Assembly (NCBI GenBank): GCA_003599425.1
Contig: QZKC01000063.1
Location: 2,835 to 66,834 of the forward strand
DNA: 64,000 bases
DNA from: Nitrospiraceae bacterium
Lineage (GTDB): Bacteria; Nitrospirota; Thermodesulfovibrionia; UBA6902
Direction of reading: 5' to 3'
In this document: positions 1,581 to 44,297 of the stretch, in pieces
Layout: each line of letters starts with the position of its first letter
Position numbering within the stretch: the first letter of the stretch is position 1
The notes under the pieces: generated by a model
The model's input: the letters and a program-made list of their open reading frames with translations, nothing else
Database searches by the model: none
What the model was told of the DNA's origin: nothing
Made by a program: the position numbers and the translations under genes

Positions 1581-2696
1581 TTATCGCTGCCCGATTGGAT
1601 TGAGTTCCTTACAGTACAGCGCTGTTCCCTCGCGTGAGCGTCCTTCATAGGGACATTGGGAGCAGAAACCGATTTTATTGCGCCCGCTCCGTACATTTTT
1701 TCGGAGTTCAACCGCCCGGGGACTGTTCCATATATCAGTAAAACTCTGCTGTCCAATCCTTCCGAAGGCGTAGTCCAGATTATGGTCATATTCACATCCA
1801 ACAACAGTGCCGTCCCAGAATACGATAGGTTGGCGGAAAGGAAAAATGCATTCAGTAAGTTTATGCCCGCCTCCGGAGGCCCCTGAATATTCGAACCTTC
1901 GCATGCTTTTTTCAGCGGGTGCATAATCATTAAAATTATCATCCTTAACCAGACACCCCAGGCTCTTGTACGAAAACATATTCACTCCAAGGCTGGCAGC
2001 AAGTTTTTCAATCTCCGCAAGATCATTCGCATTGTCCGAAGTGACAACACTCCTTATCACTGTGTAGGGGGTCTTTGAATTGCAGCGCGCCTTTGCTTCT
2101 TCAATGAGAGACGCGAACTTTTTGACCTTTTCAAGGTCTCCTCCCTTGCGATATGACTGATAGATTTCCTGGGTGCTTCCGTCAATTGCAATGATCAGGG
2201 CTGTCAGCCCTGCCTCTACAATCTTCATTGCCTCATCAAGCGTCTGGACACAATTACCGTTTGTGGAAGTGAGGGTGATAATGTTCCGGGCCGTGCATGC
2301 CTCGATCATTTTTGTAATACTTTTGTTGAGAAATGGTTCTCCAAAGTTGAAAAGGTATATGCCAATAAGTACGTGGTCCAGGTCATTGAGCGTTTTCATG
2401 AATGTTTCCTCTGTCATGATCCCTTTCGGCCTCTTCAGTGTATTTGATCCTGTGGGACAGAGTGGACAATGCAGATTACAGATATTCGTAAGTTCCGTAT
2501 GAATAAGCGGTGGCAGTCCTCTCTCTACACTTAACCGCAAGATCTTATCAATTCCGACTATTGTCAAGTTCAATCTTTTCCGGAACGAAAGTCCCTTCGC
2601 CATCAGAGGAATGCCGTCAAAATCGAAAGACAATTTCCCCTGAAACAACAGGGCCGGCAACTTCATCAACGCTTCGCTTGTTTTCATCCAGCTCAT
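1581..2696 (-). CDS. radical SAM enzyme with C-terminal SPASM/twitch-like Cys cluster (paralogue 1)
   Basis: CNLHCPLCP (CxxxCxxC) motif and FGEPFL motif. C-terminal Cys-rich region (ECIFPF...GCEYD...FCSQCPY). GGAGG Shine-Dalgarno 6 nt upstream of ATG 2696. Confidence 0.8.
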   Translation of the reverse strand: MSWMKTSEALMKLPALLFQGKLSFDFDGIPLMAKGLSFRKRLNLTIVGIDKILRLSVERGLPPLIHTELTNICNLHCPLCPTGSNTLKRPKGIMTEETFMKTLNDLDHVLIGIYLFNFGEPFLNKSITKMIEACTARNIITLTSTNGNCVQTLDEAMKIVEAGLTALIIAIDGSTQEIYQSYRKGGDLEKVKKFASLIEEAKARCNSKTPYTVIRSVVTSDNANDLAEIEKLAASLGVNMFSYKSLGCLVKDDNFNDYAPAEKSMRRFEYSGASGGGHKLTECIFPFRQPIVFWDGTVVGCEYDHNLDYAFGRIGQQSFTDIWNSPRAVELRKNVRSGRNKIGFCSQCPYEGRSREGTALYCKELNPIGQR

Positions 2697-2738
2697 TTGA
2701 TCCTCCTTTTATTCATTGATTCAAAGTAGATCATCATG

Positions 2739-3785
2739 TCATTCCTTGCCAAAAGCAGATAACTTGTTGAAGGTCGAAGAACGACTTTTGCGCCAGGGGA
2801 ATAAAAAACCCAGTCCCCGGGCAAAATGAATGGACATCAGTAAAACAGGAACATATGCAACAACAGAAAATCGCTTTGTACGATAAAGCCCTCCCAGGGC
2901 GCCATAAAGCAATATAAGACCATAACACATCATGACAACTACGAAAACATTCCGGAGAGGATGAAAGTAAGTGGAGGACAAGAAAATACCGGGCATGCCG
3001 AGCATGAAGATCGACAGTACGCTGTGCGGCAGCATATGTACACCTATGCTTCGTGAGGTCCGTGCCATATTAAAATTCCGCATTACAAATGACGGCAGGG
3101 TTGTATCACGTGAATGCAGTACCCTGACTTCCGGGGCGTAGACAATGAGTTTCCCCAATTGTTCAATACGGCTGACAAGTTCAACATCTTCGTGGACAGT
3201 CAGAGATTCATCAAAAACATGCGATAAACCGTTAGATGTTTTCGAGGCAACATGATCGGCAATTTCACGGGGGATCGCCATATTCCACAACTTAGGATAA
3301 TATTTGCCTACCCTCTGCCCTATACCTCTACGAAGACCTCCTGTGCCAATGAAAGAGTTGAAGATATGATCAAGGGCAAGATTGAAAGATGACTCATTTT
3401 CCGCCTGTATGTCCTGCCCCCCGACAACACCGACATTATGTTCCTGCGCTAATACTGAATCAATGTTGTTAAGCCAATCCGAAAGAAATATGCAGTCATC
3501 GTCTGCAAATACAAGGACCCTCCCGCGTGCTTCATTGATTGACAAATTTAACATTGCGGAACGGTTCTTTGTATCGGTTTCGATATATGTCACTGCTGCT
3601 TTCATACGAGACGACTCTTCCGTTATGATGGCTTGTGACACACTGTCATCCGCTTGAACTGCAATCCGCACTTCAAATAATTCCGGCGGGTAGTCCATTT
3701 TATCAAGCGATCTGAGGGCACTTTTCAGGAAGGTGCCTCCGTGACAGACCGGCAAAATGATGCTGAACCTGACGTCTCCGCTCAT
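2739..3785 (-). CDS. family-2 glycosyltransferase with C-terminal membrane domain
   Basis: FSIILPVCHGG N-terminus and DxD-type FADDDCIF. C-terminal hydrophobic segments. I moved the start to ATG 3785 (MSGDVRF...), which forms an ATGA overlap with the upstream stop. The track ORF starts at 3842. Confidence 0.7.
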   Translation of the reverse strand: MSGDVRFSIILPVCHGGTFLKSALRSLDKMDYPPELFEVRIAVQADDSVSQAIITEESSRMKAAVTYIETDTKNRSAMLNLSINEARGRVLVFADDDCIFLSDWLNNIDSVLAQEHNVGVVGGQDIQAENESSFNLALDHIFNSFIGTGGLRRGIGQRVGKYYPKLWNMAIPREIADHVASKTSNGLSHVFDESLTVHEDVELVSRIEQLGKLIVYAPEVRVLHSRDTTLPSFVMRNFNMARTSRSIGVHMLPHSVLSIFMLGMPGIFLSSTYFHPLRNVFVVVMMCYGLILLYGALGGLYRTKRFSVVAYVPVLLMSIHFARGLGFLFPWRKSRSSTFNKLSAFGKE

Positions 3786-4696
3786 GCCTTCCTCACGGAT
3801 TTGTTCCAGTTTCTCAATCCGCGGGCAGCTCCCCAGCACCAAGCCAATTTCAGGGCATAGATCACAGGTGCTGTCCAGACATACCTGAAAAGCCTATAAT
3901 TCTGGAAATAAATGCCCCCTGCCACCCGCAGGGCAATGATAGGAGACGCAACAAGAAGGAAGCCCGGGCTTCTGAGCACAAAAGGTGTTTGCAGGACTGA
4001 TCGGTATTTGTTGCGTAGGATGATCGTGAAAGCAGCATGATCAGCAGAATACTTAAAGATACTCTTCAATGTTGTACGCGGAGGATCATGGAGAACAGCA
4101 GCGTCAGGAGTAAAATATATACTATACCCTTGTTGACGTGCCCTGAGAATGAGTTCCATATCAGGACTGCAGTTTCTCCCCGCCTGAAAACCCTTCAGTT
4201 CTTCCAGAACAGGCCGTCTGAATCCCATATTGGCGCCTGCAATGAATCTGACGAATCTGGCCTTTTGACCAGACAGAAAGGGATGAAATTCAGAGATATT
4301 ATGGCAGAGCTTGACAAATTCCCTGTCAGGGCTTTCTATGGCGCCGGCAACAACAGGTTCCCTGTCAAGCGCAGCGCACATACGCTCTGCCCAGTCCCTG
4401 CGGGGGATGCAGTCATCATCTGTAAACAACAGATAGTCGCCCTCTGCTGACCGGATACCCATATTTGCGGCATCTGCAAGACCGATATTTTTTCCAACAG
4501 AAACATATGTTATGTTCCTCAGTCTGCCCCTCAACTCATCACACACTGCGCGTGTCGTGTCCTTGGAGCCGTCATCCACCACCACGACTTCAAAACGTTC
4601 AGAGGACAGTGTCTGATGTGAGAGGGAGAGCAGCAGGCGTTCAAGCAGATGTGCCCGGTTATAGGTGCAGATGATTATACTGACCGGTTTGTTCAT
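3782..4696 (-). CDS. family-2 glycosyltransferase
   Basis: VSIIICTYNRAHLLERLLLSLSHQT, VVVVDDGSKD and FTDDDCIP motifs typical of GT2. ATGA overlap with the upstream gene. Confidence 0.8.
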   Translation of the reverse strand: MNKPVSIIICTYNRAHLLERLLLSLSHQTLSSERFEVVVVDDGSKDTTRAVCDELRGRLRNITYVSVGKNIGLADAANMGIRSAEGDYLLFTDDDCIPRRDWAERMCAALDREPVVAGAIESPDREFVKLCHNISEFHPFLSGQKARFVRFIAGANMGFRRPVLEELKGFQAGRNCSPDMELILRARQQGYSIYFTPDAAVLHDPPRTTLKSIFKYSADHAAFTIILRNKYRSVLQTPFVLRSPGFLLVASPIIALRVAGGIYFQNYRLFRYVWTAPVIYALKLAWCWGAARGLRNWNKSVRKA

Positions 4697-5886
4697 GCTG
4701 TCTCCCCTTCAATATCCATACTGTAGAGTGAGAGCTTTCTTGAATTGTTCTTATTATTATCATGTAACTCACTGTTCAAAAATATTGTCTGAACATTTGC
4801 CGTAGTATGTTTTGTATCCCTGAGTTCACATTCCCTGCAAAAAGAAAAGGAGTTCAGGTCGAAGCAAAACTCCTTATAGAGCTGGCGTGATTGGTCAGAA
4901 GAAAGAATTTCAAGAATGCTTTTTTTTGCAACATTTCCAAGTGGGAGTGTTGCATCGAAATCATTTTCACATAACACGATGTCACCATTGCTCAAAATCG
5001 TCAGGTTGGCATATGGTCGATGGCAATAATTCTTTTCCGCTTTGATCATACTCACGGCTAACGGTCCGCTATTATTGATGAAACGCCGGAAACGCGGTGT
5101 CTTCGGGGCAAGGCTGTTCTCAAGATCAACCCCTTTACGCCGTATAACTGCTGATCGAAATGTGACAACATCAACGCCAAGATCTTTGGCAAAATCCCTG
5201 ACCCCCTCTAACTGATGTTCATTATGTTTCATGACGATGAAGCGGAAAGTAAGAAGGGGATGCCGAGCCCCAGCTTTTGAACGCTCCGAGATCAGATTTT
5301 CTATAGATTTAATGACATGCTTAAAATTCCCTCTCTTCCGGTACTTTTCATAGGTCTGCTGATCAAGTCCATCCACTGCAACTATCAGACTGTCGAGCCC
5401 AGAGTCTATGAGAGCCCTTGCCTGCTCTTTTACGGTAAAGAAATGTCCGTTGGTGCTTGAATGCACAAAAAGCCCGCAATCTTTTGCGTACCGTATCATC
5501 CTGCATGCATCCTTATTCATAAAAGGCTCTCCCCATGACCAGAAGACAAGAAGGAGTGCATGGTCTTTTATTTGGTCTATTACATTGCGATAAGTGTAAA
5601 AGGGCATAGCGAATGGAGCGCGTTTCATTAATCCGGCCCCTGTCGGACAGGTGAGGCACCCGAGATTGCATACATTTGAAGGCTCAAGTTGCACGATTGG
5701 CGGGATACCGGCAGCGACGCCTGACCGCATCATAAAGCGCACTCCATGTGCTAATAAATCAAGCCGCTTCTTCATGGGGAGCCCGCTCCGTAAGAATCGT
5801 AAATTATCGAAAGTCATCGGGTACTGCCCCCGGAAAAGGAGCTGGAGACTGGTATTCAGCGCGAATGTGACCGATGGTTTTTTCAT
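4693..5886 (-). CDS. radical SAM enzyme with C-terminal SPASM/twitch-like Cys cluster (paralogue 2)
   Basis: CNLGCLTCP (CxxxCxxC) and WGEPFMN motifs. C-terminal YCHRPY...LCEND...FCRECE. Colinear similarity to the 1581-2696 product, including the roughly 70-aa region before the cluster motif. Confidence 0.8.
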   Translation of the reverse strand: MKKPSVTFALNTSLQLLFRGQYPMTFDNLRFLRSGLPMKKRLDLLAHGVRFMMRSGVAAGIPPIVQLEPSNVCNLGCLTCPTGAGLMKRAPFAMPFYTYRNVIDQIKDHALLLVFWSWGEPFMNKDACRMIRYAKDCGLFVHSSTNGHFFTVKEQARALIDSGLDSLIVAVDGLDQQTYEKYRKRGNFKHVIKSIENLISERSKAGARHPLLTFRFIVMKHNEHQLEGVRDFAKDLGVDVVTFRSAVIRRKGVDLENSLAPKTPRFRRFINNSGPLAVSMIKAEKNYCHRPYANLTILSNGDIVLCENDFDATLPLGNVAKKSILEILSSDQSRQLYKEFCFDLNSFSFCRECELRDTKHTTANVQTIFLNSELHDNNKNNSRKLSLYSMDIEGETA

Positions 5887-6986
5887 CTTCTACCGATAGT
5901 ATTCAGAATGCATTCTGCCAGACTGTCCCATGTCATCTTTTCAGCGACCTTTCGTACTCCCTCCCTCATACTTTCCGCCGATGTATGAAGAAATTCCCGG
6001 ATGACTTCTGCAAGGGCATATGGATTTTCAGCCTCGAACAGCCGTCCCGAAACACCGTCCATAACCACCTCAGGTATCCCCCCTGTCTTTGCCGCGATGA
6101 CCGGCTTACCATAATGATAAGCCAGTGGAATGACCCCTGTTCCTGTCGCAGAGCGGTAGGGCAGAACAACGGCATCTGCTCTACAGAAATAATTCGCCGC
6201 TTCCTCTTCAGAAACATATCTGTCAACAACTTCCACCCTGGACGGCAGACTTGTATTTTTCAGCATGTTTATTAATACGGCGTCCCTCTCCCACCACTCA
6301 CCAACGACAGAGAGGAATATATCCTCTTCTTTCAGGAATGACAAAGAATCAACAAGCACATCAAGTCCCTTATATCGTCGGACGAAACCAAAGAAAAGGA
6401 GCTCAAGTTTAGCGCGCCGGGGCAAGTTTACCTTTGCAGGAGGGAACTGTTTGTAAACGGGATGTGGGTGGACCAGGACTTGTGCCCCGGGCACTAACTG
6501 GCCCAGTTTTTCCTTTTCTCTATTCGTATGTACGCAAAAAACATTCCCCTTTGAAAGAGCCCTCCGGCATAATTCCACTTTCCAGAAGGATGCTTCATGG
6601 TCTATCACGTTATGACACAAAAACATAACCTGCACCCCTCTTTTACGAAAATACCTTGCCATAAAACCCAGATATGGCGCTCCGAAAAAGGTACACCAAA
6701 CAATGATCACCAACTGTGGCGAACAATTCATCAATATGCGGCATGCCTTTTTCCATGTGACAGGGTTTAAGGAATCGATTACATATTGCACATCCGGCTC
6801 AGAATATCCCATATATTCAGGATCACGGTCATCTTTCCCTGGATACAAATATCGTGGATACTGTCTTCTGAATGAAACAGTACAAAGGCTGGACCTCATG
6901 CTCAAACTTCTGTGCAGCATCGTTGTGTGCTGTGCAATACCGCCGCGATACGGCAAAATCGGGCCGATTAATCCTACGCGCTCCAC
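5883..6986 (-). CDS. GT-B (family 1/4-like) glycosyltransferase
   Basis: 367 aa. C-terminal GGIPEVVMDGVSGRLFE (EX7E-type) motif. GTG start at 6986. 4-nt overlap with the downstream gene. Confidence 0.75.
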   Translation of the reverse strand: MERVGLIGPILPYRGGIAQHTTMLHRSLSMRSSLCTVSFRRQYPRYLYPGKDDRDPEYMGYSEPDVQYVIDSLNPVTWKKACRILMNCSPQLVIIVWCTFFGAPYLGFMARYFRKRGVQVMFLCHNVIDHEASFWKVELCRRALSKGNVFCVHTNREKEKLGQLVPGAQVLVHPHPVYKQFPPAKVNLPRRAKLELLFFGFVRRYKGLDVLVDSLSFLKEEDIFLSVVGEWWERDAVLINMLKNTSLPSRVEVVDRYVSEEEAANYFCRADAVVLPYRSATGTGVIPLAYHYGKPVIAAKTGGIPEVVMDGVSGRLFEAENPYALAEVIREFLHTSAESMREGVRKVAEKMTWDSLAECILNTIGRR

Positions 6987-7028
6987 TATTGCATGATCCT
7001 TTGATTTTTGCTGTCGTGTATATTCAAG

Positions 7029-7991
7029 CTACGGTTTCCTGTCCCGGTTTCTTATTTTCTCTTCAACCTTGCTTATACGCAAATCGACCTTTTCCAGTAA
7101 CCTACGGTTTACAGAAATGAGATCAGCCAGCAGACCAACAAGAACGAGAGAAAACCCTATTCCCATAAGAAGCGCTGCCAGGATGAGAGACTGAACGTGT
7201 CCAGCCCCTTCTTTGGAAATATAGTAGTAGAGAAACCGAAAACCGATCATAACCCCTAAGGTAAACGACAGTAGTCCCGGAATCGCAAAAAATCTAAACG
7301 GCCTGTACACCATGAAAATTCGAACTATGGTATTGGCTGCCATCAGGATGTAATGCGGTATATTTTTAATAAGTCTTGACGGGCGAAGGCTCTTGTTTGT
7401 GTGCACCGGGACAAACTTTATGTTCCATCCTCCTCTGCCTGCCTGGATAATCGTCTCTATTGTGTAGGTATAACCGTCAAATACATTTAAGCTCATTGCT
7501 ACATTCCGGCTCATCGCCCTGAAGCCGCTGGGGCCATCAGGTATATCTGTCCTGCTTGCAAGACGGACAACCCAGCTCCCCATTTTTTGCAGGTATTTCT
7601 TTACTTTCGAAAAATCTTCTATGCTGTCGATCGGCCTGGAGCCGATAACGAAATCGGCAGTGCCCTCTAAGATGGGCTGAATAAGCTTAGGGATATCAGA
7701 AGCACGATACTGGTTGTCACCATCTGTATTAACGATAATATCAGCGCCAGCCTCAAGGCACGCCTCGAGGCCAGCCATAAACGCCTTTGCCAGCCCTTGC
7801 CTTCGATGAAGCCTAACGACATGATCTATGCCATGTGAAAGTGCGACTTCAACAGTCCGGTCCGTACAGCCATCGTCAATGATAAGCCATTCAACAATAT
7901 CGACCCCTGGCAGTTCCCGGGGCAGAGCAGACAAGCACACCGCAATTGAATCTTCCTCGTTATAGCAGGGGATTTGTATAATGGCTTTCAT
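7029..7991 (-). CDS. polyprenyl-phosphate glycosyltransferase (GtrB / Dpm1-like GT2)
   Basis: IQIPCYNEEDSI, IIDDGCTDRT and TDGDNQY motifs plus two C-terminal TM helices. This is the typical architecture of bactoprenol-phosphate sugar synthases. Confidence 0.8.
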   Translation of the reverse strand: MKAIIQIPCYNEEDSIAVCLSALPRELPGVDIVEWLIIDDGCTDRTVEVALSHGIDHVVRLHRRQGLAKAFMAGLEACLEAGADIIVNTDGDNQYRASDIPKLIQPILEGTADFVIGSRPIDSIEDFSKVKKYLQKMGSWVVRLASRTDIPDGPSGFRAMSRNVAMSLNVFDGYTYTIETIIQAGRGGWNIKFVPVHTNKSLRPSRLIKNIPHYILMAANTIVRIFMVYRPFRFFAIPGLLSFTLGVMIGFRFLYYYISKEGAGHVQSLILAALLMGIGFSLVLVGLLADLISVNRRLLEKVDLRISKVEEKIRNRDRKP

Positions 7992-19595: not shown

Positions 19596-20693
19596 ATGAA
19601 TTTCCCATCAGACGATGCACTCAATGAGTCATCTGAAACCATGGAGATTCTCGGTCACAAAGGCATCTCCCGCCGTGACTTCATGAAATTCTGCACCGGC
19701 ATGGCCGCGCTCCTGTCTCTTCCCGCTTCGTTCATTCCCAAAATAGCGGAAGCTGTCAGCAGTAAAAGGCCGTATGTTGTGTGGCTCGAATTTCAGGATT
19801 GCGCCGGAGATTCTGAATCAATGCTGAGGGCCAGCAAACCAACTATCGCCCAGATCGTGCTGGATGTCATCTCGCTCGACTACCATGAGACGATCATGGC
19901 GCCCTCCGGCAAGCAGGCCGAAAAATCACTCATGGATGTTGTCAACAATCAAAAGGGGCAATACATTGCCATTGTCGAGGGTGCGATACCGCTCAAGGAC
20001 GGCGGTGTCTACTGCTGCATCGGCGGCAAGACAGCCCTTGATATTGCAAAGGAAGTGTGCGGCAATGCTGCATTTACCATCAATGTCGGCTCCTGCTCAA
20101 GCTGGGGCGGCATAGCCAGCGCAAAACCCAATCCCACAGGAGCTGTGGGATTGGGAGAGGCTGTCCCCGGGATAACCTACGTAAACCTCCCCGGCTGTCC
20201 CATGAATGTTGAAAATGTGACAGCCACCATTGTTCATTATCTGACCTTCGGTACCCTTCCTGCGGTTGATGAGCGCCACCGGCCCTATTTCGCTCACGGA
20301 AAAACAGTCCATGATAATTGCGAAAGACGGTCGCATTTTGATGCGGGACAGTTCGTCAGGCAGTGGGGAGACGAAGGACACAGGCAGGGATGGTGCCTTT
20401 ATGAAATGGGCTGCAAGGGGCCCATCGCCCACTTTAACTGTCCGTCCATCAGATGGAACGGTGGTACGAGCTGGCCGGTACAGGGAGGGCATGGCTGCAT
20501 AGCATGCGCTACTGACAATAACTGGGATGTTGCCTATCCCTTCTATGGAAGGCTTCCCAATGTGCCGGGATTCGGAATTGAGAAAACAGCCGACAAGATC
20601 GGCGCAGGCCTTGCCGCTGCAACAGCAGCAGGACTTATACTGCACGGAGTCGGCAGGGCAATATCGCCCAAGAAAGATGATGACAATAAATAA
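19596..20693 (+). CDS. [NiFe] hydrogenase small subunit, Tat-exported (atypical proximal-cluster motif DCAGD)
   Basis: Twin-arginine signal SRRDFMKF. Colinear with group-1 small subunits (SLDYHETIMA, GSCSSWGG, PGCP, HDNC, WCLYEMGCKGP, NCP, GHGCIAC). GAAGGAGG SD upstream. Confidence 0.9.
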   Translation: MNFPSDDALNESSETMEILGHKGISRRDFMKFCTGMAALLSLPASFIPKIAEAVSSKRPYVVWLEFQDCAGDSESMLRASKPTIAQIVLDVISLDYHETIMAPSGKQAEKSLMDVVNNQKGQYIAIVEGAIPLKDGGVYCCIGGKTALDIAKEVCGNAAFTINVGSCSSWGGIASAKPNPTGAVGLGEAVPGITYVNLPGCPMNVENVTATIVHYLTFGTLPAVDERHRPYFAHGKTVHDNCERRSHFDAGQFVRQWGDEGHRQGWCLYEMGCKGPIAHFNCPSIRWNGGTSWPVQGGHGCIACATDNNWDVAYPFYGRLPNVPGFGIEKTADKIGAGLAAATAAGLILHGVGRAISPKKDDDNK

Positions 20694-20716
20694 AACTGAA
20701 AAGGAGGTGATCTGCA

Positions 20717-22426
20717 TTGGCTAAATTAGTAATTGACCCGATAACAAGGATCGAAGGACATCTCAGGATCGAGGCAAAGGTCGAGAATGGAAAAGTCGTT
20801 GACGCCTGGAGCTCGAGCACCATGTTCAGGGGCATCGAGATCATTATGAAGGGCCGTGATCCGAGAGACGCATGGCTTTTCACGCAGAGAATATGAGGCG
20901 TCTGAACAACGGTGCACGCAACCGCCTCGGTGAGAGCGGTCGAAAACGCTTTAGGCCTCATAATTCCTGATAACGCACGGATCATCAGAAACCTGATCTC
21001 AGGGATCCAGTACGTTCAGGACCATGTAATACACTTTTATCATCTCCATGCGCTGGACTGGGTGGATATTGTAAGCGCACTGAAGGCGGACCCTGCCAGG
21101 ACGTCCGCGCTCGCGCAATCGATATCCGATTGGAGCAAATCAAGCACAGATTATTTCAAGGGGGTCCAGGACAAGGTGAAGGCTTTCGTTGAAAGCGGCC
21201 AGCTTGGACTTTTCGGCAATGCCTATTGGGGGCACCCCGCGTACAAGCTTCCGGCGGAGGCCAATCTCATGGCAGTAGCCCACTATCTTGAGGCGCTGGA
21301 CTGGCAGAGAGAGGTTATCAAGATGCAGGCGTTGCTGGGCGCAAAGAACCCCCATGCACAGACATACCTTGCAGGAGGCATGTCTATTCCTGTTGATCCC
21401 AACAGTCAGAACGCTCTGAATGCGGGAAGCATTGCCTTCATGCAGGGAGTTTCTCAGAAGGCGCTGGATTTCGTCTCAAAGGTCTATATTCCTGACCTGC
21501 TTGCCGTAGCGTCTTTCTACAAAGATTGGGCTGGGTATGGCACTGGTGTCGGAAACTATCTCTCGTATGGCCAGTTCCCGAACGATGGGGAAAGCAATAC
21601 AGCAAACACCTATTTCCCCAGAGGGATCATAAAAGGAAGGGATCTGAGCATAGTGCATCCGGTAGACCATACCAAGGTATCCGAATATGTAACACACTCC
21701 TGGTATGAATACTCAGGCGGGGATGACAAGTCCAGACATCCATGGGAAGGCGAAACTAACTACAAGTACACCGGTCCGCAGCCGCCGTATGAATATCTCG
21801 ATACGGATAACAAGTACACCTGGCTGAAGGCTCCCCGGTATGAAGACATGTCCATGGAAGTCGGCCCCCTGTCGAGAATGCTTGTCGCATACGCCTCAGG
21901 ACATCAGAGGGTCAAGGAAGTTGTCGATGCTGTCCTGAAACATCTCGGAGTCGGCCCGGCGGCATTATTCTCAACACTCGGACGGGTCGCAGCACGAGGG
22001 ATCGAGACCCTGATCACAGCAGAGATGCTCCCTGTGTGGATCGGCGAGCTTGCTGGAAACATGAAAAAAGGCGACTTCAAGATCCACAACGGCGAAAAAT
22101 GGGACCCTGCCACATGGCCGAAGGAAGCTCAGGGATACGGCCTCTATGAAGCGCCTCGCGGCTCCCTGGGACACTGGGTCAAGATCAAAGATGGAAAGAT
22201 CGAAAACTACCAGTGCGTGGTACCCGGAACATGGAACGGTTCCCCGAGAGACGCCAACAACCAGAGAGGTCCGTATGAAGAAGCACTGATCGGGACCCCG
22301 GTGGCCAACATTGAACAGCCGGTCGAAATACTCAGGACCGTACATTCATTTGATCCATGCATGGCATGTGCTGTTCACGTGGTCGACCCGGACGGCAAAG
22401 AGGTTATCCGGATAAGGGTGAAATAA
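20717..22426 (+). CDS. [NiFe] hydrogenase large subunit with two in-frame TGA codons (candidate selenocysteines) at both Cys positions of RxCGxCxxxH
   Basis: TTG start at 20717, with AAGGAGG in 20701-20708 upstream. The N-terminus DPITRIEGH...RDPRDAWLFTQRI-TGA-GV-TGA-TTVHA is in frame with the track ORF 20912-22426. C-terminal motif is DPCMACAVH plus a 15-aa extension. TGA codons at 20894-20896 and 20903-20905. Confidence 0.85.
20921..20940 (+). other. candidate SECIS-like stem-loop
   Basis: ACCGC (20921-20925) pairs with GCGGT (20936-20940). The 10-nt loop CTCGGTGAGA contains GGU. The loop starts 20 nt after the second TGA and 29 nt after the first. Confidence 0.35.
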
Positions 22427-22440
22427 GAAAGGGGGAAGCT

Positions 22441-23106
22441 ATGGCAAATGAAGGCAAGAGAATATACGCATGGGAATTCCCTGTTCGGTTTACCCACTGG
22501 ATAAACGCGCTCTGCATCTTCGCGCTCTCGATCACTGGGTTTTACATCGGCAACCCCTTCATGTATGCAATATCATCAAAACAGTACATCATGGGATGGA
22601 TGAGGTTCATCCATTTTGTTGCCGCATACATGTTCCTGATGAGCGTGATAATCAGGGTTTACTGGGCTTTTGTGGGTAATAAATACGCTTGTTATAAAGT
22701 TTGGTTCCCGTTCTCAGGAGAAAAGATGAGTGAATTTGTCAACGCGCTCAAGTTCTACTCGTTCATGAGCAGAAAACCGCCGTACACCGTCGGCCATCAC
22801 GCCCTTGCCGGGTTTACGTACCTGATCGTTTACATGATGTTCCTGTTTGAGATCATCTCAGGGTTTGCGCTCTATTCCGTAAACCACAAAGGAGCGATCT
22901 GGTATGCCCTCGGCGGCTGGCTCACGGCCTCCATGGCGCTGCAGATGATAAGGCTTTACCACCATCTCGTCATGTATGTGCTGCTGGCATTTACACTCAT
23001 ACACGTATATTTCGCGTGGTACTCCGACAGCAGGGAGAAGAACGGGCTGATGCTCTCGATTTTCACTGGGTACAAATTCTTAACCGGGAAAGAATCGGAT
23101 ATTTAG
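22441..23106 (+). CDS. Ni/Fe-hydrogenase b-type cytochrome subunit
   Basis: MANEGKRIYAWEFPVRFTHWINA... with four TM helices and conserved His residues. I moved the start to ATG 22441, preceded by GGGGGAAG. Directly follows the large subunit. Confidence 0.85.
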   Translation: MANEGKRIYAWEFPVRFTHWINALCIFALSITGFYIGNPFMYAISSKQYIMGWMRFIHFVAAYMFLMSVIIRVYWAFVGNKYACYKVWFPFSGEKMSEFVNALKFYSFMSRKPPYTVGHHALAGFTYLIVYMMFLFEIISGFALYSVNHKGAIWYALGGWLTASMALQMIRLYHHLVMYVLLAFTLIHVYFAWYSDSREKNGLMLSIFTGYKFLTGKESDI

Positions 23107-23196: not shown

Positions 23197-25563
23197 TTAT
23201 GGAGCTTTCCAGTTCCAGTCCTTGATCTCCGGCATGTCCTGGCCGTACTGAACAATATATTGCCTGTGCTCAATAAGCCTGTCGCGGACGAACTGCTTTA
23301 TGTAAGCGGATATGTCTTTCAGTTTCGGGACGCGGTCGATGACATCTGACATGAGATGAAACCGGTCGAGGTCATTACGGACGACCATATCGAAAGGGGT
23401 TGTCGTTGTGCCTTCTTCCTTGTATCCACGGACATGGAGGTTTTTGTGATTAGTCCTTCTGTAAGTAAGCCTGTGTATGAGCCAGGGATATCCGTGGTAG
23501 GCAAAGATGATAGGCCTGTCGGTCGTAAACAGGGCGTCAAACTCCCTGTCTGAAAGGCCGTGGGGATGTTCCTCCCGTGGTTGAAGCGTCATGAGGTCAA
23601 CTATATTGATCACACGGATCTTCAGATCAGGGATATGCGTGCGCAGCAGGTCAACTGCGGCGAGTGTTTCGAGCGTGGGCACATCACCAGCGCATGCCAT
23701 TACAACATCCGGCTCTTTGCCCCTGTCATTGCTTGCCCATTCCCATATTCCGATCCCGGCTGTGCAGTGTTTTATTGCTGAATCCATATCGAGCCACTGA
23801 AGCTCAGGCTGTTTCCCGGCAACGATGACATTGACGAAATTCTGGCTCCTCAGACACTTGTCCGCCACATATAAAAGCGTGTTTGCGTCAGGCGGGAGAT
23901 AGACACGGATGGTATCAGCCTTCTTGTTCACGACGTGATCGATAAAGCCAGGGTCCTGGTGTGAGAATCCGTTATGGTCCTGTCTCCAGACATGGGAAGT
24001 CAACAGATAGTTGAGGGAAGCGACAGGGCGTCGCCAGGGTATCTCTTTTGAAGTTACCTTGAGCCATTTCGCGTGCTGGTTGAACATGGAATCAATAATA
24101 TGGATGAATGCTTCATAGCAGGAAAAAAGGCCATGCCGGCCTGTAAGGAGATACCCTTCCAGCCAACCCTGACAGGTATGTTCACTGAGTATCTCCATAA
24201 CGCGTCCATTTGCTGAGAGGTGGTCATCCTCCGGAAGTTTATCAGCCATCCATGTCTTTTCCGTAACCTCGTACAAAGCACTGAGGCGGTTCGATGCTGT
24301 TTCATCAGGGCCGAAGATGCGGAAATTCTGTGTTTCCATATTCAGCTTCATGATATCCCGCAGGAATTTTCCCATGATGCGGGTAGGTTCAGCATAGACC
24401 TGACCCGGCCCCGGCACCTGTACCGCGTAGTCTCTGAAGTCGGGCATTGTGAGGTCTCTCATCAGCAGGCCTCCGTTTGCGTGCGGATTTGCTCCCATGC
24501 GGCGATCACCTTTGGGCGCAAGCGCGGCAAGCCGGGGGACAAGGTTCCCTTTTTCATCAAAGAGTTCTTCCGGCTTATAGCTCTTCATCCACTCTTCAAG
24601 GAGTTTTATATGGTCCGGTTTCTCTGCCAGTCCGGAAAGCGGGACCTGGTGCGACCGCCAGAAACCCTCGGTCTTCAAGCCGTCAACCTCTTTCGGCCCT
24701 GTCCATCCCTTAGGTGTCTGCAAAATGATCATTGGCCATTGAGGACGTTTGACTATTCCGTTTGTCCGGGCATCGTGTTGTATGGCCTTGATCTCAGATA
24801 GCACTGTATCCAGCGTTTTCGCCATGAGATTATGCATGAGAAAAGGATCAGAGCCTTCCACAAAATACGGGTGATAGCCGTATCCAATGAACAGGTTCTC
24901 AAGCTCTTCACGGCTGATCCTTGCAAGCAGCGTTGGATTTGCGATCTTGTAACCGTTCAGGTGTAATATCGGAAGAACTGCTCCGTCGCGCGCTGGATTG
25001 AGAAACTTGTTCGAATGCCATGAAGTGGCGAGCGGCCCTGTTTCTGCCTCGCCGTCACCCACGACACACGCGGCGATGAGGCCTGGATTATCAAAGACCG
25101 CGCCGTATGCGTGAGAGACCGCGTATCCGAGTTCACCTCCTTCATGTATGGAGCCGGGTGTTTCAGGCGCTGCGTGGCTCGGTATCCCGCCGGGGAATGA
25201 AAACTGCTTGAAGAGTTTTTTCATTCCATCGGCATCCTGAGAAATATGGTGATAGAATTCGCTGTACGTCCCTTCAAGGTAGGTATTTGCAACAAGCGCA
25301 GGGCCGCCGTGTCCGGGGCCTGCAATGTAAATGACATTGAGGTCATGGGCCCTGATGATGCGGTTGAGATGGACATAGATGAAATTGAGCCCCGGGGTTG
25401 TTCCCCAGTGACCGAGCAGCCTCGGCTTGATATGCTCCAGAGTGAGAGGTTGTTTTAGAAGGGGGTTGTCATACAGATATATCTGTCCTACGGAAAGATA
25501 ATTCGCGGCACGCCAGTAAGCGTTTGTATTTTCCAGTTCCTCCTTCGATAGATAATCAGGCAT
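23197..25563 (-). CDS. xfp: xylulose-5-phosphate/fructose-6-phosphate phosphoketolase
   Basis: 788 aa. N-terminus ...[17 protein letters not shown], plus [16 protein letters not shown] and EGGELGY motifs characteristic of phosphoketolase. Confidence 0.9.
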
Positions 25564-25572
25564 GACGTCCTC

Positions 25573-25616
25573 CTCTTTGTGCCTCTGTACCTTTGTGCCT
25601 CTGTGCCTTCTGTAAC
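25573..25616 (-). repeat. 8-nt-period degenerate tandem array (sense GCACAAAG / GCACAGAG / GTACAGAG)
   Basis: The plus strand reads CTTTGTGC CTCTGTAC CTTTGTGC CTCTGTGC CTTCTGTA. It fills the ackA-xfp intercistronic spacer up to the xfp SD. Confidence 0.7.
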
Positions 25617-26720
25617 CTATGTCTGGCAGACTATTGATACCGCTTCCTCTGCAAGAACAGATGCTTCGTCAGCAGGGATGACCCATACAGCAGGTTTGCT
25701 TTTGTTCAGACTGATGCATCCTTCTGTTCCCATTGTAGCATTGTTTGCCTGTGTGTCAAGGAATATGCCAGTCCACTGCATGCCTTCAAGAATATTCTCC
25801 CTTACCTTCGGGGCATTCTCGCCAATGCCGCCGCCAAAGAGGACTGCATCAGCTCCCTGAAGAACAGCAAGGTAGGCGCCGAGATATTTTTTTGCCCGGT
25901 AGCAGAAGAGGTCGATGGCGCGGCTGGCATCAGGATGACTGCTTTCAAGCAATGCCTTCATGTCACTGCTTATTCCGGAAACACCGAGGAGGCCAGAGGA
26001 GTGATTGAGCATAGTTTCGATCTCATCAAAGGACAACCCGCAGGAGCGTCCGAGATGCAATATTATACCCGGATCAATGTCGCCTGAACGTGTTGCCATG
26101 ACAAGTCCTTCAAGAGGAGAAAATCCCATCGAGGTGTCTAAAACTTTCCCGTCCCTTACCGCCGTGATGGAGCAGCCTGCGCCGAGCTGCAGCGAAATGA
26201 GCCTGCTGTCTTTTAGGTGTGGATGAAGTTCTTTCCATCTCTTCCACATTGCGCTGTGCGCAATACCATGAAAACCATAACGCCGGATATGGTGCTTTTT
26301 CATCAGATCAGCAGGCAGCGCATAGGTCATTGATACTTCAGACAGGGCTGCATAAAAAGCTGTGTCGAACACCGCAACCTGAGGGACATGGTCTCCGAAT
26401 TCAGCCCTGCACATCCGTATCCAGTTCAAGGCAAATGGATTGTGCAGCGGCGCAAGCGATGAAAGTTTATCGATCTCGGATTCAACAGAAGGGTTTATCA
26501 GACAGGAGTGTGAGAACTTTGTTCCTCCGTGGACAACACGGTGCGCGACAGCCGATATTTCATAAATGCCATTATCGCGAAGGAATGTCTTCAGGATCGA
26601 TGACGAACTTTCATCAAGTGCGTATTTCCTCGATGCAATCTTCCCGACACCGTTTCTTTTTTTTTCGAATGCAGCGAAGCGTACAGATGAACTCCCTGCG
26701 TTTACAGCCAGAATTGCCAT
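25617..26720 (-). CDS. ackA: acetate kinase
   Basis: [19 protein letters not shown]-terminus, plus HRVVHGG, FDTAF and GFHGIAH motifs. At 367 aa it is shorter than many AckA proteins. Confidence 0.85.
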
Positions 26721-40933: not shown

Positions 40934-43900
40934 ATGCCAAAGACCTTGATGCCGCATGAAAAGTTCTTCACTTCATTGCGGGATTTTGCCGGGCAGTTGA
41001 CGGCAAAGTTTTCAGCAATGGCTGCGGGTGAGCCGGAAGACCAGCTCAAGCCTCCGGTTGATCATCTCTTTGCCGCATATGGCAAAATCATCTCCCGCAA
41101 TATTGTCCTGAAAGGCGAGTCCGGTTTGAAGGACCGGCTGGGACGCCCGGACTTCGCAGCGCACAGCGACACTCTTCCTGTCGGTTATGTTGAACTCAAG
41201 GCTCCAGGCAAAGGCGCGAATCCCGAACACTTTAAGGGACATGATCGTGAGCAGTGGAATCGCTTTAAGAATGTCCCGAACCTGATATACACTGACGGCA
41301 ACGAATGGGCGTTGTACCAGAATGGAGAACTGGCGGCAAAATGCATCCGGCTTGATGGTGATATTCGCACTGACGGGAAAGACGCAGTCTCTCAAAGCAA
41401 TGCGCTGGACCTTTTTCAGTTATTTGCCGAATTCACAAGCTGGGCTCCGATAGTTCCCAAGAATCCCAAAGAGCTTGCCGCATTCCTGGCCCCGTTCTGC
41501 CGGTTGATACGGGAGGAGGTGCTTGATTCTCTCAAAGACACGGCATCGCTCATGCACATTCTCAAAAAAGACATCAAGGCGCTCCTGTTTCCTGACGCAA
41601 ATGACCAGCAGTTCGCCGATGCATACGCTCAGACCGTTGTCTTCGCCCTGCTTCTGGGGCAGATGGAAGGCGCAAACGTCCTCGATCTCCGTAACACATA
41701 CGACACACTTGAACATCATCATTCACTCCTGTCGCGTTCGCTTGAATTTCTGACCGACAAGGAAGCGAGAAAGGAGATCATCGCGTCACTCAGCATGACC
41801 CAGCGTGTAATTCACGAGATACCTGTGCAACTGCTCACGGCAACATCGGCAACCAAAGACCCGTGGCTGTTTTTCTATGAAGACTTTCTTGCAAGCTATG
41901 ATCCAAAGCTTCGTAAGGAATCAGGCGTCTACTTTACGCCGCTTGAGGTTGTACGTTGTCAAGTCAGGCTTATTGACGAAATCCTGCACAAACATCTGGG
42001 CCGGAATATGGGCTTTGTGGAAGCAGGAGTCGCAACGCTTGATCCCGCTGTCGGCACCGGCACATACCTTTTGGGAATCATTGATCATGCCCTTTCGCGT
42101 GTTGAAGAGGAAGAAGGTTCAGGCGCTATCAAAGGCGGCGCACGCGCGCTGTTTCACAATCTGCACGGATTTGAATGGATGGTCGGTCCCTACGCTGTGG
42201 CACAGCTTCGCTTTTCTCAGGCATTGACCAAGCGCGGCATCTCTTTGCCTGCTACCGGACCTGGGATTTACCTTACAAACACACTTGAATCACCTCATAC
42301 GCACCCGCCGGCTCCTCCGCTGTTTCACGTGCCGATTGCCCGCGAGCATGAGCGTGCTTTGAAGATAAAAGACTCTGAACATATTCTCGTCTGTCTTGGA
42401 AATCCGCCCTACGGCAGACACGAAGCCGCAACAGCAGACAATCAGGCATTGACCGGTGGATGGGTCCGCTTTGGAGACAAGAACAATCCTTCCACAAAAT
42501 CAATTATGGAAGACTTTCTCGAACCCGTGCGGAAAGCCGGTTATGGAGTGCATCTGAAGAACCTCTATAATCTTTACGTGTATTTCATCCGCTGGTCTCT
42601 GTGGAAGGTCTTTGAGCACAAGACCGCAACGGGGCCGGGCATTCTCACGTTTATTACCGCTTCATCCTATCTCGACGGAGACGCCTTCGCAGGCGTGCGC
42701 GAGCATATGAGGCGCGTTTGCGATTACATAGACATCATCGATCTCGGCGGAGAAGGACGCGGGACTCGAAAGGAAGAAAACGTTTTCGCAATCCAGACGC
42801 CAGTGGCTATCTTCATCGCATGGCGGAAGAGTAAATCTAATCCTGAAACTCCTGCCGTTGTACGTTACACAAGAATTGAAGGCACGAGAGAAGAAAAGCT
42901 TGCGACTCTCAACTTCGTTAAATCAATCAATGATCTTAAATGGGAGAATGTCCCCAGCGACTGGCAAGCTCCGTTTAAGCCGGTCTCGACCCAAAACTAT
43001 TTTTCATGGCCCAAATTGATTGACCTGTTTTCATGGCAGCAGTCCGGTGTACAAGTTACACGACTATGGCCTATTGCTCCTGATGTAGAAGTTCTGAGGA
43101 CTCGCTGGGATGAATTTGTTATCAGCAATAATAAAACAGAACTCTTCAGAGAAACCCGTGATCGGCAAATTGACAAGCAATATTTTGATATAAGAGATGA
43201 AAATATAATCTTACCTATATTAGAGAAAGCTACTAGGCAAGATTTGATTCCTCCAGTTAGATATACTTACCGCTCTTTTGACAGACAATGGATTATTCCT
43301 GATAACCGTCTTGGCGATTATTTTCGTCCAGTCTTGTGGCAAGTGCATAGCATTAATCAAATATATCTCACAAGTCTCTTTAACCATCCTCTTGGAGACG
43401 GCCCCTCGATGACTGCCTGTTCAGAAATTCCTGATCGGCATCATTTTCGGGGATCTTACGGTGGAAAGGATATTCTTCCTCTTTATCGTGATTCTGAATG
43501 TACTAAGCCGAACATACTGCCGGGCTTGCTCGAAGTGCTTGCAAAGAATTACGGCAAAGCGGTGACGCCGGAGGATTTCGCGGGCTATGTGTACGGTCTG
43601 CTTGCACAGCCGGAATATACACGGCGGTTTGCCGATGAGCTTGCAAGCAGGGAAGTGCGTGTGCCCCTGACGAAAGACGGAAAGCTGTTTGAAAAAGTCG
43701 CTGACTTCGGCAAGGAGCTTATCTATCTTCACACATACGGAGAGCGTTTATACGACGCTAAACATCCGAAGGGAAAAATCCCTCACGGATCGGCTCGATG
43801 TACAAAGGCTGTATCAGACAGAGAAGACAAATACCCGAATGAGTTTCATTATGCTGACACTACAAAAACCCTGCATGTAGGCGACGGTGAGTTCACGCCT

Positions 43901-44248
43901 GTGTCACCGGACATTTGGGAGTTTGAAGTGTCAGGGCTGAAGGTTGTTCAATCCTGGCTCGGCTACCGCATGAAAGACAGAAGCGGAAAGAAATCCTCTC
44001 CGCTTGACGACATCCGTCCCCGCATCTGGACACGAGAGTTCAACACGGAACTTTTGGAATTACTCTGGGTCCTTGGAAAGACTGTCGAAGGATATCCAAA
44101 ACAGAAACAACTTCTTGAAGCCGTCCTTGAAGGCGTGCTGTTCAGGGCAGACGAACTGCCCGACGTCCCCGCCGACTCCCGCGAGGCGCCTAAAGTGACA
44201 AAATTACGCAGTTCACAAGAGCAATTACCTCTCACTAATGATGAATGA
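40934..44248 (+). CDS. single-polypeptide restriction-modification enzyme (Type IIG/IIL-like): PD-ExK nuclease + gamma-class N6-adenine MTase + C-terminal specificity region
   Basis: N-terminal GRPDF (Asp codon 41150-41152) and VELK (41189-41200). SAM-binding-like DPAVGTGTYL. Catalytic NPPY (42401-42412). The C-terminal region with RYTYRSFDRQW resembles Type ISP/MmeI-type specificity domains (from memory). Confidence 0.75.
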   Translation: MPKTLMPHEKFFTSLRDFAGQLTAKFSAMAAGEPEDQLKPPVDHLFAAYGKIISRNIVLKGESGLKDRLGRPDFAAHSDTLPVGYVELKAPGKGANPEHFKGHDREQWNRFKNVPNLIYTDGNEWALYQNGELAAKCIRLDGDIRTDGKDAVSQSNALDLFQLFAEFTSWAPIVPKNPKELAAFLAPFCRLIREEVLDSLKDTASLMHILKKDIKALLFPDANDQQFADAYAQTVVFALLLGQMEGANVLDLRNTYDTLEHHHSLLSRSLEFLTDKEARKEIIASLSMTQRVIHEIPVQLLTATSATKDPWLFFYEDFLASYDPKLRKESGVYFTPLEVVRCQVRLIDEILHKHLGRNMGFVEAGVATLDPAVGTGTYLLGIIDHALSRVEEEEGSGAIKGGARALFHNLHGFEWMVGPYAVAQLRFSQALTKRGISLPATGPGIYLTNTLESPHTHPPAPPLFHVPIAREHERALKIKDSEHILVCLGNPPYGRHEAATADNQALTGGWVRFGDKNNPSTKSIMEDFLEPVRKAGYGVHLKNLYNLYVYFIRWSLWKVFEHKTATGPGILTFITASSYLDGDAFAGVREHMRRVCDYIDIIDLGGEGRGTRKEENVFAIQTPVAIFIAWRKSKSNPETPAVVRYTRIEGTREEKLATLNFVKSINDLKWENVPSDWQAPFKPVSTQNYFSWPKLIDLFSWQQSGVQVTRLWPIAPDVEVLRTRWDEFVISNNKTELFRETRDRQIDKQYFDIRDENIILPILEKATRQDLIPPVRYTYRSFDRQWIIPDNRLGDYFRPVLWQVHSINQIYLTSLFNHPLGDGPSMTACSEIPDRHHFRGSYGGKDILPLYRDSECTKPNILPGLLEVLAKNYGKAVTPEDFAGYVYGLLAQPEYTRRFADELASREVRVPLTKDGKLFEKVADFGKELIYLHTYGERLYDAKHPKGKIPHGSARCTKAVSDREDKYPNEFHYADTTKTLHVGDGEFTPVSPDIWEFEVSGLKVVQSWLGYRMKDRSGKKSSPLDDIRPRIWTREFNTELLELLWVLGKTVEGYPKQKQLLEAVLEGVLFRADELPDVPADSREAPKVTKLRSSQEQLPLTNDE

Positions 44249-44297
44249 GAAAGGAAAATGTTGATTGAAAAACAGGTGGGGCCATAATGCAAGATAC

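Follow-up and report, generated by a model that had tools for sequence, protein, structure and literature searches.

Can a respiratory [NiFe] hydrogenase carry selenocysteine (Sec, U) at both of its N-terminal metal ligands? The question is raised by a stretch of DNA of 64,000 nucleotides (nt) from a Nitrospiraceae bacterium (contig QZKC01000063.1, positions 2,835 to 66,834; the whole stretch is referred to below as the window), in which a gene for a hydrogenase large subunit is interrupted by two TGA codons in the columns of the two cysteines of the nickel-binding motif RxCGxCxxxH. A preliminary description of the window had put this gene forward as a candidate U-x-x-U (UxxU) enzyme. The proposal is supported here by comparison with related genomes and metagenomes: the two codons are conserved at the ligand columns across phyla, the sequence on either side of them is translated, with upstream codons of coding type, and a hairpin with G in its loop covaries and is restricted to genes of the UGA type. 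We propose that Sec is inserted at both UGAs, at least under selenium-replete conditions, a reading to which we assign a probability of roughly three in four. The window has a G+C content of 47.7%, its closest relatives are metagenome-assembled genomes of Thermodesulfovibrionales/Nitrospirota, and a JGI metagenome contig (Ga0104756_1000208, sample 3300007352) contains an exact match to one of its proteins.

The large-subunit gene was followed as a single frame from a TTG at 20717, nine bases after the GGAGG core of the Shine-Dalgarno sequence AAGGAGGTG, to a TAA at 22424-26. Exactly two in-frame stops interrupt its 569 codons, both of them TGA, and there is no frameshift or further stop, as the preliminary description had stated. 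The translation around them reads DAWLFTQRI-(UGA)-GV-(UGA)-TTVHATASVRAVENALG, the motif itself being QRI-(UGA)-GV-(UGA)-TTVH; we refer to the two codons as UGA1 and UGA2. The 504-residue open reading frame (ORF) reported mechanically from GTG 20912 lies, as also claimed, in a frame identical to that of the full-length gene. Among solved structures the protein matches 3MYR of Allochromatium vinosum best (E 6e-221), the two being colinear over residues 3-554. We take 3MYR to belong to HydDB subgroup 1e (Isp-type); Hya of the nearest cultured Cys-type relatives, Geobacter and Malonomonas, is presumably a member of 1f. Both TGAs align gap-free with the two cysteines of QRICGVCTLVH in 3MYR, and their earlier assignment to the Cys columns is thereby confirmed. 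The first cysteine of this motif is a terminal ligand of Ni and the second bridges Ni and Fe, the equivalent residues of Escherichia coli Hyd-1 being C76 and C79 (PMC13582414, PMC8020662). The protein possesses the PF00374 domain and both motifs of a Group 1 large subunit, with the N-terminal Cys columns encoded by UGA. Its C-terminus has an all-cysteine motif, again as described (SFDPCMACAVH), and a tail of 15 residues after His554. An extension beyond the final His is the usual substrate of the maturation endopeptidase.

Reassignment of TGA to Trp or Gly, or an error of sequencing or assembly, would account for two interruptions of this kind, and is suggested by nothing beyond the in-frame TGAs themselves. 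Within the window TGA is an ordinary stop, ending 15 of the 42 ORFs that span 250 codons or more from stop to stop. The three cases from which the preliminary description had excluded a reassigned code were all confirmed, at 15907 (a gene of the alpha-amylase family), 37324 (mreC) and 62047 (thiG), with overlapping starts at mreC and thiG. In-frame TGA is confined to Cys columns, a read-through scan of the window gave no second convincing candidate, and the same codons recur in more than 100 independent assemblies. We consider reassignment or error to be scarcely conceivable.

The codons that orthologues carry at the two columns, a check that had been proposed at the outset, were read directly from the DNA of the 80 closest species-representative genomes (loci L001-L080). 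TGA is present at both columns in 32 of the 80 loci, six have TGY/TGA (CxxU; L014, L026, L057, L064, L066 and L069) and 42 have TGY/TGY (CxxC), whilst the converse arrangement TGA/TGY (UxxC) was found in none of the 80. The TGA/TGA loci belong to Nitrospirota, Thermodesulfobacteriota, Chloroflexota (Anaerolineae, Thermoflexus, Caldilineales) and Methylomirabilota, and encode proteins with identity to the window protein down to approximately 70%. Furthermore, a pattern scan identified the UxxU signature in at least 120 metagenome contigs. With both codons shared so widely, the earlier judgement that a chance pair of nonsense mutations is very unlikely holds. In one respect the preliminary description has to be corrected: the UxxU type is not a rarity of one genome. 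It is common among uncultured members of Nitrospirota and Chloroflexota. Within a large Nitrospirota/Chloroflexota clade most genes are of the UGA type, which makes up about half of the 80 closest species.

Public gene models conceal this distribution. Among the best 120 homologues of a protein search, 77 are gene models of 498-504 residues that start just past the motif, whilst the remaining 43 have CxxC and full length; all public models of the UGA-type clade are shortened in this way, and none is flagged. The C-terminal motif is Cys-Cys in all of the best 120 homologues, in each of the 80 complete genes among the 81 compared (the window and 80 loci), and in all 53 metagenome genes that are complete. 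In one database model of a related large subunit (P0149, from the P0089 cluster; 606 residues) the last His of DPCMACAVH is missing and unrelated sequence follows, apparently through a frameshift or an error in the assembly of the contig concerned.

The shortened models correspond to a second explanation, that of a pseudogene or split gene in which translation stops at 20894 and at most a fragment of 498-504 residues is made from GTG 20912 or a downstream start. Gene callers do give such models (504 residues from 20912 in the window; the 77 shortened homologues), and a GAGG is located 13 nt upstream of GTG 20912. However, models disagree on the supposed internal start (giving 498, 499 or 504 residues), and a fragment without residues 1-65 loses two of the four metal ligands and, with them, the region of the conserved RIEGH glutamate. 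In the 38 UGA-type loci no stop interrupts the 57 codons that precede the motif, and nearly all of these loci have an ATG, TTG or GTG start preceded by a Shine-Dalgarno sequence at the expected place. Differences from the window over these codons number 474, 195 and 1221 at codon positions 1, 2 and 3, respectively. Because they are stop-free and diverge mainly at third positions, the upstream codons are evidently translated coding sequence under purifying selection. Both TGAs are conserved rather than scattered, the 569 codons are otherwise intact, and the hairpin described below covaries. The gene thus has in-frame UGA on a Cys column with coding sequence conserved on both sides, as in a selenoprotein gene, and we regard a pseudogene or split gene as very improbable. 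Since the TGAs are conserved across genomes, their flanks are coding and TGA is an ordinary stop, the pseudogene, split-gene, sequencing-error and reassignment readings are untenable.

Immediately downstream of the motif, the RNA can form a hairpin resembling a bacterial selenocysteine insertion sequence (SECIS), ACCGCCUC-GGUGA-GAGCGGU. In the window it comprises either 7 bp and one bulged nucleotide or 8 bp and a GGU triloop, and it belongs to the bulged class. The apical loop (20929-20933) contains an invariant GUG, the codon of Val72, and has the form (C/G)GUG(A/C) across the clade. The loop starts 23 nt past UGA2 and 32 nt past UGA1. Both distances are inside the bacterial SECIS consensus range of 16-37 nt.

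We compared 39 UGA-type genes (alignment A1) with 42 Cys-type genes (alignment A2) over the 81 nt that begin at the motif's Arg codon. In a 6-bp register (columns 36-41/47-52), 90% of cells are paired in the UGA-type genes and 58% in the Cys-type genes, the latter being the level of shuffled alignments (83 of 500 shuffles as high). The observed covariation was reached by none of 500 shuffles of the UGA-type genes, as against 92 of 500 for the Cys type. Double compensatory changes are present in four of the six pairs of the UGA-type genes (AU/UA/GC, GC/CG, CG/UA and UA/GC), and controls in which the 3′ partner was moved by 1-3 columns had 33-59% of cells paired. A perfect stem was found in 37 of 39 UGA-type genes (28 with a plain 6 bp, nine with 7 bp and a bulge) compared with two of 42 Cys-type genes (none plain, two bulged). 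The loop GUG is present in 39 of 39 versus six of 42, the Cys type having mostly AUC (Ile; Fisher 7e-17), and the mean folding energy of a 23-nt segment is -8.9 versus -5.1 kcal/mol (p 4e-10). The stem is kept partly via amino-acid changes, with Ala/Ser/Cys codons pairing with Ala/Gly/Ser codons, a pattern not easily explained without selection on RNA structure. In a held-out test of 75 unique metagenome segments, found by the UGA pattern alone, 68 had a perfect stem in one or other of the two registers, and the same loops dominated. The hairpin therefore has the properties of a SECIS element: a downstream stem-loop with G at the first or second loop position, and covariation.

Its spacing suits UGA2 better than UGA1. 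Since the hairpin is also present in the CxxU genes, in an identical position, the element looks to be positioned for UGA2, with UGA1 added later under the same hairpin. Two further structures were considered. A long-range helix of AAUAUGAGGC with GCCUCAUAAUU (z -3.2) was rejected, as its 3′ partner is not conserved at other loci. A possible 5-bp helix, 20897-20901/20916-20920 (GGCGU/ACGCN), would hold UGA2 in its loop and is 88% paired in UGA-type genes, but shows almost no covariation, its columns being constrained by Gly-Val and His-Ala/Ser codons. A comparison of large-subunit residues between the Sec and Cys types, which is confounded by phylogeny, gave nothing clean beyond Val72. An additional feature concerns the Ile codon 5′ of UGA1 (20891-20893; columns 4-6 of A1). 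UxxU genes mostly have ATA here (31 of 33 genes, and 57 of the 75 unique metagenome UxxU segments), whereas all six CxxU genes have ATC and only one of 42 CxxC genes has ATA. This may reflect a codon-context requirement for decoding a UGA distant from the SECIS.

On the reading that we favour, the large-subunit mRNA would be translated from the TTG to the TAA without either UGA, 9 nt apart, being read as a stop. The hairpin, with G-U in its apical loop, would serve as a bacterial SECIS element recruiting SelB·GTP·Sec-tRNA(Sec). Sec would be inserted first at UGA1, and a second SelB complex would then decode UGA2 three codons on, with the hairpin intact some 15-17 nt ahead of the A site; a single hairpin presumably serves both codons. 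The mature site would be Ni(Sec60)(µ-Sec63)(Cys548)(µ-Cys551)Fe, with Sec60 and Cys548 terminal and Sec63 and Cys551 bridging: two N-terminal selenolates and two C-terminal thiolates, the reverse of a canonical [NiFeSe] site. Hyp-dependent cofactor insertion and C-terminal cleavage would be followed by twin-arginine translocation (Tat) together with the small subunit, and electrons would pass from H2 to quinone via the cytochrome b. That the inserted residue is Sec is consistent with the complete selABCD sets carried by those Nitrospirae/Thermodesulfovibrio genomes that have selC* (PMC5389517). By analogy, a high-affinity, strictly anaerobic uptake enzyme is plausible, because the C76U and C79U variants of Hyd-1 have a lower apparent KM(H2) and have lost O2 tolerance (PMC8020662).

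Several observations weigh against insertion of Sec at both positions. The minimal SECIS of E. coli is about 11 nt from its UGA, and the spacers here are approximately 15-17 and 24-26 nt; moreover, a single element has to work for two UGAs within three codons. A search of Rfam over 20860-21000 at a permissive E-value gave no match to the hairpin, but such elements are short and gene-specific in bacteria. Neither selA, selB, selC or selD nor another selenoprotein gene was found in the window or in 3.5 kb more of the contig beyond its start, which encodes a histidine kinase and a sigma-54 regulator. ARAGORN and Rfam detected no tRNA or RNA family in the window, and no tRNA-Sec or selC* adjoins the orthologous loci (88 loci). 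The case for selenium in the polypeptide is, in addition, one made from sequence. The C76U and C79U variants of Hyd-1 keep 3% and 13% of activity, respectively, and become O2-sensitive (PMC8020662); given such poor engineered variants, the selective advantage of Sec is left unexplained. Finally, a selC* tRNA-Cys that decodes UGA as Cys exists in Thermodesulfovibrio and in Nitrospirae-like contigs (PMC5389517).

This tRNA gives rise to the most serious alternative. With the same machinery and hairpin, one or both UGAs might be read as Cys by a SelB-delivered selC* tRNA-Cys (tRNA-ReC), always or when selenium is scarce, and the product would be a chemically ordinary all-Cys [NiFe] enzyme or a mixture of Sec and Cys forms. 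The preliminary description needs amending to this extent, in that the inserted residue could be Cys wherever selC* tRNA-Cys exists (PMC5389517). tRNA-ReC is enriched among genomes with UXXU enzymes of Group 4, occurring in approximately 56% of them versus 2% of other Sec-type genomes (PMC13582414). Cys-type enzymes are 81-83% identical to the window protein (P0003-P0006), so Cys fits the scaffold, and engineered Sec at either position lowers the activity of Hyd-1 (PMC8020662). On the other hand, TGC or TGT would be a cheaper and safer way to encode Cys and is one mutation away, and the pair of UGAs has long been retained, along with a SECIS, across four phyla, which points to selection for Sec at least at times. 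Nor is selC* reported in Chloroflexota or Methylomirabilota, which also have the UxxU type (lineages in PMC5389517), and there is none in the window or the compared loci, in which little DNA was searched. We therefore judge decoding as Cys to be unlikely, and retain insertion of Sec at both codons as the preferred reading.

How the types are distributed was investigated with a neighbour-joining tree of the 81 large subunits, which is distance-based and not bootstrapped and from which gain and loss events were not counted. UGA types are confined to two regions of this tree, a Nitrospirota/Thermodesulfobacteriota clade and a Chloroflexota/Methylomirabilota clade, and each region is a mosaic of UxxU, CxxU and occasional CxxC genes. 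The branches of Acidobacteriota, Gemmatimonadota and Geobacter/Desulfuromonadales are uniformly CxxC. A degraded hairpin is kept by some CxxC genes (e.g. L063, L031 and L035), which suggests that these are reversions. As no UxxC type was seen, the simplest order of events would be CxxC to CxxU to UxxU with repeated losses.

The large-subunit gene lies between genes for a small subunit and a cytochrome b (Table 1). The small subunit has the twin-arginine signal SRRDFMKF, Fe-S cluster domains and a hydrophobic C-terminal anchor, and together with the cytochrome b as membrane acceptor it supplies the partners of a Group 1 enzyme. The mechanical ORF of the cytochrome b starts at 22357 and overlaps the large-subunit gene by 70 nt; the true start is likely the ATG at 22441. 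We found no sign of an energy-converting, Nuo-like or formate hydrogenlyase-like complex of Group 4: the subunits are of Group 1 type, a Tat signal is present, and Pfam and NCBIfam scans of the window ORFs found no antiporter-like subunits adjacent to the hydrogenase genes. Likewise, the same databases revealed no hyp genes, maturation protease or sel genes among approximately 50 ORFs of the 64-kb window. This layout is that of a Group 1 uptake hydrogenase that faces the periplasm and reduces quinone, and the three genes are best explained as a functional operon for a periplasmic, membrane-anchored, H2-oxidising enzyme of that group.

Table 1. Positions in the window of the hydrogenase genes and of the elements discussed in the text.
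Feature	Position	Strand	Basis or remark
[NiFe] hydrogenase small subunit	19596..20693	+	Pfam Oxidored_q6 and NiFe_hyd_SSU_C, translation, motif survey
Shine-Dalgarno sequence AAGGAGGTG	20701..20709	+	Ahead of TTG start 20717
[NiFe] hydrogenase large subunit, 569 codons through two UGAs	20717..22426	+	PF00374, 717 bits; 3MYR match
UGA1, codon 60	20894..20896	+	Column of first (terminal, Ni-only) Cys ligand of RxCGxCxxxH
UGA2, codon 63	20903..20905	+	Column of second (Ni-Fe bridging) Cys ligand of RxCGxCxxxH
SECIS-type hairpin ACCGCCUC-GGUGA-GAGCGGU	20921..20940	+	Covariation, folding, Cys-type controls
C-terminal Ni-binding motif DPCMACAVH, both ligands Cys	22352..22378	+	Translation
Cytochrome b subunit (Ni_hydr_CYTB)	22441..23106	+	Pfam; ATG 22441 behind AAGGGGGAAG

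The small subunit is itself unusual in its first proximal Fe-S cluster motif WLEFQDCAGDSES, which reads CAGD where standard Group 1 enzymes have CTGC. At the last of these four positions the 80 related loci have Asp, Asn or Cys, independently of the Sec or Cys type. A link of Asp/Asn to the UGAs was considered and rejected, as this is a feature of the clade with no association with UGA type; from the pattern it would seem that the proximal cluster of this clade is ligated by Asp/Asn or unusual in some other way.

On one side of the operon lies corA (minus strand), and on the other are genes for a phosphoketolase (XFP) and an acetate kinase. The latter pair (23197-26720, minus strand) is directly downstream of the hydrogenase genes and is an unusual pairing for a Nitrospirota-like genome. 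Two regions elsewhere in the window deserve mention. At 40934-44248 (plus strand) a protein of 1104 residues has a Type ISP restriction-enzyme C-terminal domain; it adjoins a 724-residue protein (44352-46526, minus strand) with a DruA-like (Druantia) domain and a DDE_5 transposase domain, and 40934-46526 may be a defence or mobile island. At 1581-7991 (minus strand) two radical SAM/SPASM maturase-like genes are interleaved with four or five glycosyltransferase genes, a cluster to which a flippase-like membrane protein (646-1551) also belongs.

The widest proposal to which these data lend themselves is that a large respiratory uptake clade, widespread in the environment and present in Nitrospirota, Chloroflexota, Methylomirabilota and Thermodesulfobacteriota, naturally employs two selenolates, one terminal and one bridging, as ligands of its NiFe site, both encoded by UGAs 9 nt apart under one minimal SECIS, and that lineages with selC* could yield a sulfur- or a selenium-ligated enzyme according to selenium supply. 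We advance this complete picture tentatively and consider it rather doubtful. Were it true, the first coordination sphere of a metal site would be tuned at translation, and hydrogen uptake in these lineages would be tied to selenium availability. On the current view, [NiFe] hydrogenases benefit from selenium at the terminal ligand of the C-terminal motif and nowhere else, and the window enzyme would be a natural and abundant counter-example. It would place two selenium atoms at the other two positions, within the best-studied group, for which crystallography, spectroscopy and electrochemistry are mature and the single C76U and C79U variants are available for comparison. The system would also be suited to asking how one bacterial SECIS serves two UGAs three codons apart, and how flexible its spacing is. 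For annotation the consequences are immediate. Hundreds of database models named 'Ni,Fe-hydrogenase I large subunit' are N-terminally shortened and lack two metal ligands, and NCBI-style pipelines would call such genes pseudogenes. This error distorts what surveys show of H2 metabolism among the Nitrospirota and Chloroflexota of sediments, groundwater and hot springs.

With the canonical [NiFeSe] hydrogenases (HydDB group 1a, Desulfomicrobium baculatum 1CC1 and Desulfovibrio vulgaris Hys; group 3, Methanococcus Fru/Vhu) the window enzyme shares the PF00374 superfamily and a Ni ligand encoded by UGA, and with the bacterial members also a SECIS-type element in the coding sequence just downstream. 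The arrangement is nevertheless reversed. In canonical enzymes the only Sec belongs to the C-terminal DPUxxC motif, where it is the terminal ligand cis to the substrate site, and the N-terminal pair is Cys-Cys, whereas the window enzyme has no DPUxxC, its C-terminal motif being all Cys and both of its N-terminal ligands being encoded by UGA. Consistent with this separation, NiFeSe chains in the PDB align with the window protein only from residue 177, with E of about 1e-100 as against 6e-221 for 3MYR. A review of prokaryotic selenoproteins from May 2026 gives UxxC as the only Sec motif of hydrogenases, confined to sulfate reducers and methanogens (PMC13188914).

Both 3MYR and the Cys-type relatives of the window enzyme (Geobacter, Malonomonas, Roseiflexus and Acidobacteriota; 66-70% identical) have Cys at the two N-terminal ligands, and the latter are without the hairpin; many of these relatives share the C-x-G-[D/N/C] small-subunit motif. 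The closest experimental counterparts are the Hyd-1 variants C76U and C79U (Evans et al. 2021, PMC8020662), Group 1 enzymes with Sec at the same two positions, both of which assemble and oxidise H2. These are, however, single substitutions obtained by UAG suppression in an O2-tolerant parent, while the window gene is a natural double UGA.

The preliminary description had been aware of no described example of a Sec pair in the N-terminal motif with Cys in the C-terminal one. As regards the motif itself this does not stand, for Takano et al. (Front Microbiol, September 2026) report 47 Group 4 sequences with N-terminal CXXU, UXXC or UXXU (47 of 23,473 sequences, approximately 0.2%), identified in silico, and call UXXC and UXXU previously unrecognised (PMC13582414). 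According to the same authors, Groups 1 and 3 carry C-terminal Sec except for the CXXU sequences noted by Baltazar et al. 2011, two in Group 1 and one in Group 3 (as cited in PMC13582414). To judge from that citation, the Group 1 sequences of Baltazar et al. have Sec at the N-terminal bridging position, like the six CxxU loci here, and differ from the window enzyme, in which the first, terminal ligand is encoded by UGA too. As regards Group 1 the claim does stand: no description of a UXXU enzyme of this group was found in the literature searched, where Baltazar et al. 2011 is represented by its citation.

The likeness to the Group 4 variants is extensive (PMC13582414). In both, the Sec columns are N-terminal only and include UXXU, a single downstream SECIS is proposed for both UGAs, and the conserved loop G opens a GUG codon for Val, being lost in Cys relatives by a Val-to-Ile change; a mosaic distribution of Sec and Cys types and misannotation at UGA are likewise common to the two. 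The differences lie in the kind of enzyme and in frequency. Group 4 variants are energy-converting, cytoplasm-facing multisubunit complexes, rare and with UXXC among them, whereas the window enzyme is a Tat-exported Group 1 uptake type with cytochrome b, from a clade in which UGA types account for about half of the closest 80 species and UXXC is not seen. What is new is thus the UXXU motif, a type already known from Group 4, in a respiratory uptake enzyme of Group 1, where it is the common state in whole lineages.

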